A stretch of DNA of 64,000 nt from Octopus vulgaris (Eukaryota). The position numbers were made by a program, and so were the translations under genes. The DNA lies in assembly GCA_951406725.2 (NCBI GenBank), contig OX597822.1:37200001-37264000 (forward strand), read 5' to 3'. The notes under the pieces are model-generated. The model had not been told where the DNA came from. It did no database searches and saw only the letters and a program-made list of their open reading frames with translations. Positions within the stretch are counted from its first letter, which is position 1; the number at the start of each line of letters is the position of its first letter. Below, piece by piece: positions 50,101 through 53,100 of the stretch.

Positions 50101-53100
50101 ATAGTAAGAGCTTCCATAGTAGTGAGGATCATGGTGTTTAGAATAGTAAGAGCTTCCATAGTGGTGAGGATCATGGTGTTTAGAATAGTAAGAGCTTCCA
50201 TAGTGGTGAGTGTCATAGTGTTTAGAAGAGTAAGAGCTTCCATAGTGGTGATAGTTATGGTGTTTAGAAGAGTAAGAGCTTCCATAGTGGTGAGGGTCAT
50301 GGGGTTTAGAAGTGTAAAAGCTTCCATAGTGGTGATGAGGGGGTTGGAGTTTCAATGAGTAACAGTCATCATAGGGGTAATGTTGGTGGGGTTTTGAAGA
50401 ATATGAGTTTTTATCAGCAGATCTCTTATGTCTTCCAAAAGGAGGCCAGTAGGATTTGGGGTTGTAAGATCGACTAAAATGGTCATATTCAGGAATGTAG
50501 TAGGGATTCCAATAATAAGGGAATTCATAGTGTTGCTGATATCGGTGAGATCTGAAATTGGAAGGGTGTCCTTTACTATAAAAGCGATAGGGACCATGAC
50601 GATAAGATTTAGGCTTATGATAGGGATAAGATTTAGGCTTATGATAGGGATAAGATTTAGGCTTATGATAGGGATAAGATTTAGGCTTATGATAGGGATA
50701 AGATTTAGGCTTATGATAGGGATAAGATTTAGGCTTATGATGGGGATAATATTTAGGCTTATGATGGGGATAAGATTTAGGCTTATGATGGTGAAAAGAT
50801 TTAAAGCCATGATAACGATGATGTTTAAAGACGTGATGATGGTGAGATTCAGCATGAAAATGATGTTTACCAAGAAAATGGTGTGCCAAGGCATGAGGAA
50901 GAAGAGGTTTAGAAACAGATCTTTTATAACGGGGTAAGTAATCATCATCATCATCATCATAAAAATTGGTTGCACCATCATAATATTTGCTTTGTTTAGA
51001 ATAGTAAGGGTTTGAAAAGGGGTGAGGGGGATAACTTTTAGAAGGGTAAACATTTTTGTAGTTATAAGGATAATAAGGTTTTGGGTAGGATTTAATATAT
51101 TTGTGTGATTTGGGACCGGAAGGATATCCCTTATCATAATAGTTATAAGATTTAGAACCATAACGGTGATAATATTTAGAGCCTTGATAATCATATTTAG
51201 TATGATAAGGATGCTTGTCAGGATAGTTATGAGATTTAGGAGGAGTGGGTTTAGTGGGTTTAGTGGGTTTAGTGGGTTTAGAAACAGATCTTTTATAACG
51301 GGGTAAGTAATCATCATCATTGTAAGTTTGGGTTACATCATCATGATATTTGCTTGATTTAAAATGATAAGGGTCTGAAAAGGTGTGAAAGGAGTTTGTT
51401 TTAGAAGAGTAAAGATCATAGGGATAATGATGTCCCAGAGAGGGTTCTTGAGTATCTGTATAGTAGTGTGGCAAGTTTAAGAAGGTACGAGGGGTGTGAG
51501 TGTGACTATGAGATGTTTGACTGTGTGATGTTTGACTGTGTGATGTTTGACTGTGTGATGTGTGACTGTGTGATGTGTGACTGTTTGATGTGTGACTGTG
51601 CGATGTGTGACTGTGCGATGTGTGACTGTGGGAAGTGTGACTATGCAATGTGTGCAGCAGCCTACTGTGTTTGTGCACCAAGTGCGAATCGGCATGCAAT
51701 AAATGTGCATGCTTGTGTAATGCATGGCTTTGAGTGTGGCTCAACCCTCCATTAGGATGTAACAAGTGTGAGTGAGCATGAGCTAAATGTAAGTGAGCAT
51801 GAGTTAAGTGTGAGTCAGCATGAGCTAAGTGCTCAAGTTTGTGTGACAAGTGACTTTGAGTGTGAAGTAACCCTCCATGAAGATGGGCCAAGTGGGAGTG
51901 AGAGTGCAATAAATGTGCATGCTTGTGTAATGTATGACTTTGAGTGTGGCTCAACCCTCTATAAGGATATAACAAGTGTGAGTTAGCATGAGCTAAATGT
52001 GAGTGAGCATGAGTTAAGTGTGAGTCAGCATGAGCTAAGTGCTCAAGTTTGTGTGACAAGTGACTTTGAGTGTGAAGTAACCCTCCGTGAAGATGAGCCA
52101 AGTGGGAGTGGGAGTGCAATAAACGTGCATGCTTGTCTAATGCATGGCTTTGAGTGTGGATCAACCCTTCATATGGGTGCAACAAGTGTGAGTGAGCATG
52201 AGTTAAGTGTGAGTGAGCATGAGCTAAGTGCTCGAGTTTGTGTGACAAGTGACTTTGAGTGTGAAGTAACCCTCCATGAAGATGAGCCAAGTGGGAGTGA
52301 GAGTGCAATAAATGTGCATGCTTGTGTAATGCATGGCTTTGAGTGTGGCTCAACCCTCCATTAGGATGTAACAAGTGTGAGTGAGCATGAGCTAAATGTG
52401 AGTGAGCATGAGCTAAATGTGAGTCAGCATGAGCTAAGTGCTCAAGTTTGTGTGACAAGTGACTTTGAGTGTGAAGCAACCCTCCGTGAAGATGGGCCAA
52501 GTGGGAGTGAGAGTGCAATAAATGTGCATGCTTGTGTAATGTATGACTTTGAGTGTGGCTCAACCCTCTATAAGGATATAACAAGTGTGAGTTAGCATGA
52601 GCTAAATGTGAGTGAGCATGAGTTAAGTGTGAGTCAGCATGAGCTAAGTGCTCAAGTTTGTGTGACAAGTGACTTTGAGTGTGAAGTAACCCTCCGTGAA
52701 GATGGGCCAAGTGGGAGTGAGAGTGCAATAAATGTGCATGCTTGTGTAATGTATGACTTTGAGTGTGGCTCAACCCTCTATAAGGATATAACAAGTGTGA
52801 GTTAGCATGAGCTAAATGTGAGTGAGCATGAGTTAAGTGTGAGTCAGCATGAGCTAAGTGCTCAAGTTTGTGTGACAAGTGACTTTGAGTGTGAAGTAAC
52901 CCTCCGTGAAGATGGGCCAAGTGGGAGTGAGAGTGCAATAAACGTGCATGCTTGTGTAATGCATGGCTTTGAGTGTGGATCAACCCTTCATATGGGTGCA
53001 ACAAGTGTGAGTGAGCATGAGCTATGTGCTCATGCTTGTGTGACAAATGACTCTGAGTGTGAAGTGAACCTCCATGCTGGTGAGCCAAGTGTGAGTGAGT

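Follow-up and report, generated by a model that had tools for sequence, protein, structure and literature searches.

A giant exon in an octopus peroxidase gene may encode convertase-released peptides inside the catalytic domain

Peroxidasin is cut by furin at Arg1336 and the cut form alone enters the matrix, and a predicted convertase site in PXDNL stays uncut (sections of PMC8533639 cited here); MPO and EPO consist of two chains, the cut falling directly behind the distal His (PMC10679500, in part). Among molluscan biomaterials, cleavage at a dibasic R-M-K-R site divides the pearl-oyster precursor Pif177 into parts that work together, and the matrix enzyme nacrein has its catalytic domain split by a low-complexity repeat (PMC11291548, passages on these proteins). 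In sandcastle-worm glue, polycationic proteins rich in Lys, His and Tyr occur together with sulfated polysaccharide and an oxidase secreted alongside them (PMC9999432), and gland peroxidases are essential for the egg-string cement of the salmon louse (PMC6947537; both in the parts cited). The cement of the octopus oviducal gland, which strings and fixes the eggs, has been known from gland histochemistry since 1975, as mucoprotein plus sulfonated mucopolysaccharide (PMC8976471, citing Froesch and Marthy 1975).

Here we describe a gene in a 64,000-nucleotide stretch of the Octopus vulgaris genome (contig OX597822.1, hereafter the window), each ingredient of which has precedent in the convertase-cut peroxidases, the dibasic-cut shell precursor and the repeat-split enzyme. 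Like peroxidasin and proMPO/proEPO, its product would be a secreted peroxidase and convertase substrate (cleavage of the octopus protein being predicted); whereas the cuts in peroxidasin, MPO and EPO remove a propeptide, a C-terminal domain or 4–6 residues, the three octopus sites lie inside the catalytic domain, where cutting would free peptides of 15–21 kDa and leave long tails. Pif177 differs in having no enzyme, one site and a place in shell nacre, and nacrein in being a carbonic anhydrase with a Gly-Xaa-Asn repeat, for which the relevant passages of PMC11291548 mention no repeat release. In the sandcastle worm and salmon louse, unlike the octopus gene, enzyme and structural proteins are separate genes, and the likeness drawn here is one of system. 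Among open-licence papers and preprints we found no report of an enzyme whose catalytic domain contains substrate modules that can be released, no paper naming this gene's records or accessions and no octopus egg-string proteome; the passages drawn from PMC11931252 and PMC8777159 hold no direct match to this architecture.

The gene model comprises 12 exons on the minus strand (60900 to 36071), with all introns GT-AG, and encodes 1,838 aa with a single stop:

60845..60900, minus strand: candidate first coding exon, Met plus hydrophobic leader (about 16–17 aa); nearest ATG–hydrophobic–GTAAGT, with phase 2 fitting exon A
58936..59093, minus strand: exon A, start of the An_peroxidase domain (tblastn, Pfam family search, AG/GT ends, O. 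maya primer across the A/B junction)
56953..57132, minus strand: exon B, distal Gln (56995-56993), distal His (56983-56981), Ser at the ester Asp position
55347..55374, minus strand: exon C, 28 nt, Cys-Cys pair C135 and C136 (similarity to XP_052826901.1; phases fit both sides)
49824..53608, minus strand: exon D, 3,785 nt, Cys146 motif, ~1,220-aa insert, Cys1387 motif (open frame, paralogue exon, O. bimaculoides insert)
46587..46676, minus strand: exon E, calcium-binding motif
46015..46122, minus strand: exon F
43039..43284, minus strand: exon G, distal Arg (43276-43274), Ser at the ester Glu position
40370..40886, minus strand: exon H, proximal His (40821-40819), partner Asn replaced by Phe (40524-40522)
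38452..38609, minus strand: exon I
36729..36828, minus strand: exon J
36071..36161, minus strand: exon K, to the stop codon

The segment at 60845–60900 is a good candidate for a signal-peptide exon. Our leader scan also gave a second, weaker candidate inside the window plus many farther upstream, and within 20 kb it failed to recover the leader of a paralogue (P0269, which begins with a hydrophobic leader). Elsewhere in the window, exons of a protein arginine methyltransferase gene lie at 1122–1406, 6474–6605 and 7464–7694 (minus strand), the first matching PRMT_C and PRMT6/PRMT2 structures and the other two judged by eye.

That the host is a heme peroxidase split by an insert, as a reading of the sequence alone (hereafter the sequence-only reading) had proposed, is supported by An_peroxidase (PF03098) matches of 76 and 112 bits to its exons. 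The O. bimaculoides orthologue, RefSeq XP_052826901.1 (P0003), carries the same insert and scores above the curated cut-off for An_peroxidase (396 bits in 2 stretches); its gene model lacks the two 5′ exons, and its enzyme exons are 88–97% identical to those of O. vulgaris. LPO and MPO are the best solved relatives. The domain, distal and proximal His, Arg and calcium motif are common to the octopus protein and the invertebrate chorion peroxidase/peroxinectin-like members of PF03098.

Both species keep the distal Gln, His and Arg, the proximal His and the calcium-binding motif, which aligns to that of LPO; ten profile columns read Q-S-H-D-R-S-R-H-F-K in each. Set against ordinary animal heme peroxidases, the protein has a far longer gap between distal His and calcium motif, a Phe in place of Asn and no ester residues. 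Both heme-ester residues (Asp, Glu) are Ser in the two species, a double loss seen in 18 of 249 domains with intact His/Arg/His; the partner Asn of the proximal His, kept in 242 of those 249, is Phe in both, and a second conserved heme-contact Arg is Lys. This Asn is hydrogen-bonded to the proximal His (PMC10679500, in the section cited), and its loss is otherwise typical of domains that also lack that His. Among 361 complete domains the Phe/Lys/Ser/Ser pattern is unique to these two proteins. Because of the Asn-to-Phe change, the loss of both ester residues and a very long branch, peroxidase activity must be considered uncertain on the sequence.

The sister paralogue (P0149/P0269, "chorion peroxidase-like"; support 0.955 in a tree of 366 domains) lies 1.1 Mb away and matches a protein named from O. 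vulgaris at 96–100% in most exons. Its intron positions around the loop are the same, with only 39 codons in the equivalent of exon D; this short form recurs in four more paralogues, the exon not being located in two others and a diverged cluster. Since the sister shares the introns and the short form recurs among paralogues, we read the alignments as growth of the ancestral exon, by ~1,220 codons, from a point between the C-F-P-I Cys and the C-x-x-L-V-R-S Cys. The insert-bearing branch is very long (1.2 from the sister). In XP_052826901.1 the distance from distal His to calcium motif is 818 aa, compared with a median of 81 over the 174 domains measured (95 of 268 proteins lacked a motif), and a His/Tyr-rich stretch occurs in only 1 of the 268 fetched peroxidases. 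Five other loops of 464–816 aa have ordinary composition; we rejected them as inserts, taking them to arise where a motif is skipped between tandem domains, as two of the five do.

Insert orthologues were sought more widely: none appeared in 2,895 candidates of 30–302 aa, in the best 120 of 1,051 matches of 711–2,265 aa, or above 45% identity in the best 150 representatives (where relatives above 50% are hidden behind P0001), and an ESM Atlas search gave no usable match. The nearest Argonauta match is the orthologue of the insert-free paralogue (62% identity). At about 12.05–12.32 Mb of G000:C20 (L027–L034) lies a cluster of diverged peroxidase genes, five or more in number, and in several the distal Arg motif seems to be missing; directly upstream of another paralogue is an Ala-rich 254-codon frame (L022:195-956, plus strand), perhaps a low-complexity N-terminal exon.

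An insert of this size raises the possibility of a retained intron or exitron. Exon D has 0 in-frame stops over 1,261 codons (36–254 in the other five frames), its tandem-repeat periods are multiples of three in 24 of 24 rows, and no internal acceptor scores above 3.2, against 9.9–17.5 for the true acceptors (scored with a matrix derived from the 11 junctions of this gene); in O. bimaculoides the exon is likewise open, over 793 aa. The open frame, the repeat periods and the lack of usable internal splice sites rule out the intron explanation, and on these features we regard the insert as coding. Read contigs from 4 of 24 listed runs over 49760–51480 contained no splice joint for exon D; two RNA-like runs among them covered only site 3 (see below), and the 10 single-base differences, none in a site codon, amount to a divergence too small to count. 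Nine RNA-like runs contain some exon D words, none being recorded as RNA. A plus-strand frame at 48674–49108, in the intron after exon D, resembles the tail of a retroelement reverse transcriptase.

The 1,276-codon minus-strand open frame around exon D (53646-49816) contains exactly three R-X-K/R-R motifs, the convertase consensus as defined in the cited parts of PMC6223083 and PMC6784293 (arrows mark the predicted cut):

51289..51300, minus strand: site 1, R-Y-K-R↓S-V, after residue 914; identical in O. bimaculoides XP_052826901.1
50920..50931, minus strand: site 2, R-Y-K-R↓S-V, after residue 1037; R-Y-K-R↓S-I in O. bimaculoides XP_052826901.1
50422..50433, minus strand: site 3, R-H-K-R↓S-A, after residue 1203; R-Y-K-R↓S-A in O. 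bimaculoides XP_052826901.1

These positions are those given by the sequence-only reading, as are the Ser directly after every site (3/3) and the spacers of 123 and 166 aa. Ser or Val after a convertase site is favourable. The only K/R-R pairs of the frame are those inside the three R-X-K-R↓S motifs; a K-R-R in exon A was not counted as a site, as it lies between two conserved Cys and lacks a P4 Arg. The motif is common in other peroxidases (306 in 318,476 aa of 271 fetched proteins, or 0.96 per 1,000 aa), where Ser follows in 21 of the 306 occurrences; in the giant exon it is rare because Arg makes up just 2% of the residues. When the whole exon was shuffled 100,000 times, three motifs arose in 0 cases; for its last 560 aa the count was 2 of 100,000. 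As sites 1 and 2 are copies within one duplicated cassette, the fairer figure is that for at least two motifs, reached in 62 and 112 of 100,000 shuffles, respectively.

The cassette duplication, also proposed earlier, is real: with the site residues excluded, the local alignment scores 116 against a shuffle mean of 41, and 0 of 300 shuffles reach 116. No second copy of the cassette was found elsewhere in the genome. Because 46 bases around sites 1 and 2 are identical in O. vulgaris (51274-51319 vs 50905-50950), whereas the corresponding bases differ from each other in O. bimaculoides, the identity likely reflects recent gene conversion. The peptides that would lie between the sites (A and B, below) are faintly homologous, 2–9 of 300 shuffles reaching their scores, and may be old copies of each other.

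Comparison with O. bimaculoides offers a view of what is held constant while the repeats turn over. All three sites are present in XP_052826901.1: their basic residues are conserved 9/9 and the Ser after them 3/3, compared with a background after the His block of 320/535 residues (60%), 39/64 other K/R and 3/8 other Arg (two species, counts run at three gap settings). Residues before site 3 are unalignable between the species and the site itself is kept. Taken as independent residues, the 9/9 conservation has p about 0.01–0.03, a figure that is overstated because sites 1 and 2 are duplicates. A further K-R pair lies ten residues ahead of site 3 in the O. bimaculoides protein (residues 697–708).

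From these comparisons, selection on the R-X-K-R↓S motif seems likely; the earlier argument that sites at module boundaries imply selection is partly circular, because the site belongs to the duplicated module. Acidic runs were likewise reported upstream of sites 1 and 2 and are present in O. vulgaris (DDD, DDDDDD), but as a design element they fail: O. bimaculoides lacks them ahead of sites 1 and 2, neither species has one ahead of site 3, and as an unconserved feature they were ruled out as a processing signal. Boundary position and acidic run, as we read the two sequences, add little to the case for selection. The attribution to furin was too specific, since any kexin-like convertase fits and PC1/3 is reported in the gland.

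The sites divide an insert built of distinct compositional modules:

51696..53229, minus strand: His/Leu/Ser/Ala block of 511 aa, repeating every 70 aa with a 7-aa sub-period; largely missing in O. bimaculoides
51494..51654, minus strand: Ser-His-Thr pentapeptide repeats, kept in both species
50920..51288, minus strand: predicted free peptide A, 123 aa, 14.8 kDa, pI 9.5, 21% Tyr, no Cys
50422..50919, minus strand: predicted free peptide B, 166 aa, 20.8 kDa, pI 10.1, 16% Tyr, 19% His, 8-aa repeat, no Cys
49894..50407, minus strand: His-His-Tyr-Gly-Ser repeats, 14-aa period, predicted C-chain tail

The make-up of the four products named by the sequence-only reading is borne out: after removal of the leader, the predicted lengths are 898, 123, 166 and 635 aa (102, 15, 21 and 74 kDa), all with pI 9.3–10.1. 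Lys and Arg outnumber Asp and Glu by 22 to 10 in peptide A and 31 to 4 in peptide B. In O. bimaculoides the peptides are 139 and 184 aa, and the 8-aa repeat of peptide B has a different consensus. Copies within the His/Leu block at 51696–53229 are 92–95% alike; the block is either a recent lineage-specific expansion or has collapsed in the O. bimaculoides assembly.

How, then, might the enzyme halves stay together after cutting? In EPO the cystines Cys257–Cys281 and Cys253–Cys263 are nested (PMC10679500, in the section cited). The octopus insert sits between the last two Cys of that cluster, and the Cys cluster of the paralogue aligns with its LPO counterpart. We matched the EPO numbers to the motifs here by their spacing, and presume this correspondence to hold. 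By analogy, C135 or C136 should pair with C1387 across the insert, and such a cystine would hold the two chains together. Where the insert joins the domain, both species keep three additional Cys (53568, 53553 and 49884), which may staple the base of the loop.

Evidence on where the gene is used comes from O. maya, for which qPCR primers to an oviducal-gland "chorion peroxidase" transcript (TRINITY_DN16362_c4_g6_i1) are given in Table 5 of PMC8976471. Each primer has 3 mismatches to our gene model and 9 to the sister paralogue; the forward primer spans the exon A/B junction and the reverse lies in exon B, so that the match covers exons A–B of the orthologue, outside the insert. The predicted product, 116 bp, is exactly as printed there. 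In the parts of that study cited here (one organ; RNA-seq with one library per condition), the transcript rises at fertilization and egg-laying and falls in senescence (P = 0.0161 for the effect of stage in qPCR), and its BLASTx value is 3.4e-09; so weak a value would fit a 5′ transcript fragment broken at repeats. Neuroendocrine convertase 1 (PC1/3; higher in control than in heat-treated fertilized females) and dual oxidase 2 stand on the same top stage-dependent gene list. Its authors read the "chorion peroxidase" as hardening the chorion, and the account of the gene in the portions cited makes no mention of an insert. The primer match indicates, through exons A–B of the O. maya orthologue, that the gene is expressed in the cement-making gland at laying.

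Together these observations suggest a route from gene to material. The product would enter the secretory pathway by means of the leader encoded in the 5′ exon and would be cut by furin or PC1/3 in the Golgi or a secretory granule; cleavage at the sites we consider probable. An N-chain (102 kDa: distal His plus His-rich tail) and a C-chain (74 kDa: Tyr/His tail plus proximal His) are predicted, by analogy with the two-chain enzymes, to remain associated through the conserved cystine. The polycationic peptides and tails could then condense with the sulfated mucopolysaccharide of the gland, and the condensed material could be cured by dityrosine or phenolic coupling with H2O2; should cleavage occur, condensation and oxidative curing seem slightly better than an even bet. 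For the whole chain of events, a convertase-cut precursor yielding a disulfide-linked two-chain peroxidase and two basic Tyr-rich peptides that are cross-linked into egg cement or coat, we put the probability at roughly 0.5.

Other accounts share parts of this evidence. The precursor may be cut as described and its peroxidase domain be weak or dead, serving as a folded carrier or cross-link node while another peroxidase, or metal–His and charge interactions, perform the curing. The replaced proximal Asn, heme-contact Arg and ester residues, the confinement of that pattern to two of 361 complete domains, the branch length of 1.2 and the usual company of Asn loss with loss of the proximal His all speak for such decay; yet both species retain the distal Gln/His/Arg, the proximal His and its Arg, and the calcium motif, and the loss of both ester residues is shared by 16 more of the fetched domains. 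We rate a weak or dead enzyme as unlikely, if a real contender. Less probable again is an uncut 212 kDa enzyme with a giant tether loop, its motifs mere passengers of a duplicated module. The shared cassette and 46 identical bases of sites 1 and 2, the faint homology of peptides A and B and the frequency of R-X-K/R-R among peroxidases would all be expected of passengers; against this, motif and Ser persist where neighbouring residues, acidic runs and repeats have been replaced or deleted, every K/R-R pair of the exon is in the full R-X-K-R↓S form, and convertases should be able to reach a loop that is secreted and rich in Pro, Ser and His.

Processing might also serve a different end. If the released cationic peptides were antimicrobial and the enzyme made oxidants, the gene would defend brooded eggs and not glue them; the peptides are indeed strongly cationic and Cys-free, they may resemble histatin-type peptides, and the family includes defence peroxidases. 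A Tyr content of 16–21% and tandem Pro/Tyr repeats nonetheless better match cross-linking substrates, long His and Tyr tails would stay on both enzyme chains, and fast change in repeat number would be typical of material proteins; we consider the defensive role improbable. Finally, the same processing and curing could have their main place in a different hardened structure, such as beak, radula, sucker lining or stylet, with oviducal expression secondary. Squid beak is hardened by His-rich proteins (PMC11931252 and PMC9999432, in the parts cited), the O. maya study covered a single organ (PMC8976471), and the nine RNA-like runs with exon D words have no recorded tissue, but the gland transcript peaks at egg-laying and falls at senescence (PMC8976471); we rate this the remotest of the four.

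The reading we prefer, a cut precursor cured into the egg cement or coat, would have one gene deliver catalyst and material at a fixed ratio, and it gives exact masses and N-termini to seek in egg cement. A transcript filed as an ordinary chorion peroxidase has its annotation corrected. More tentatively, and at a little under even odds, we propose a self-supplying glue gene, a cross-linking peroxidase with convertase-released substrate peptides inside its catalytic domain, which would be the first named octopus egg-cement protein and would offer a one-gene design for an underwater adhesive.
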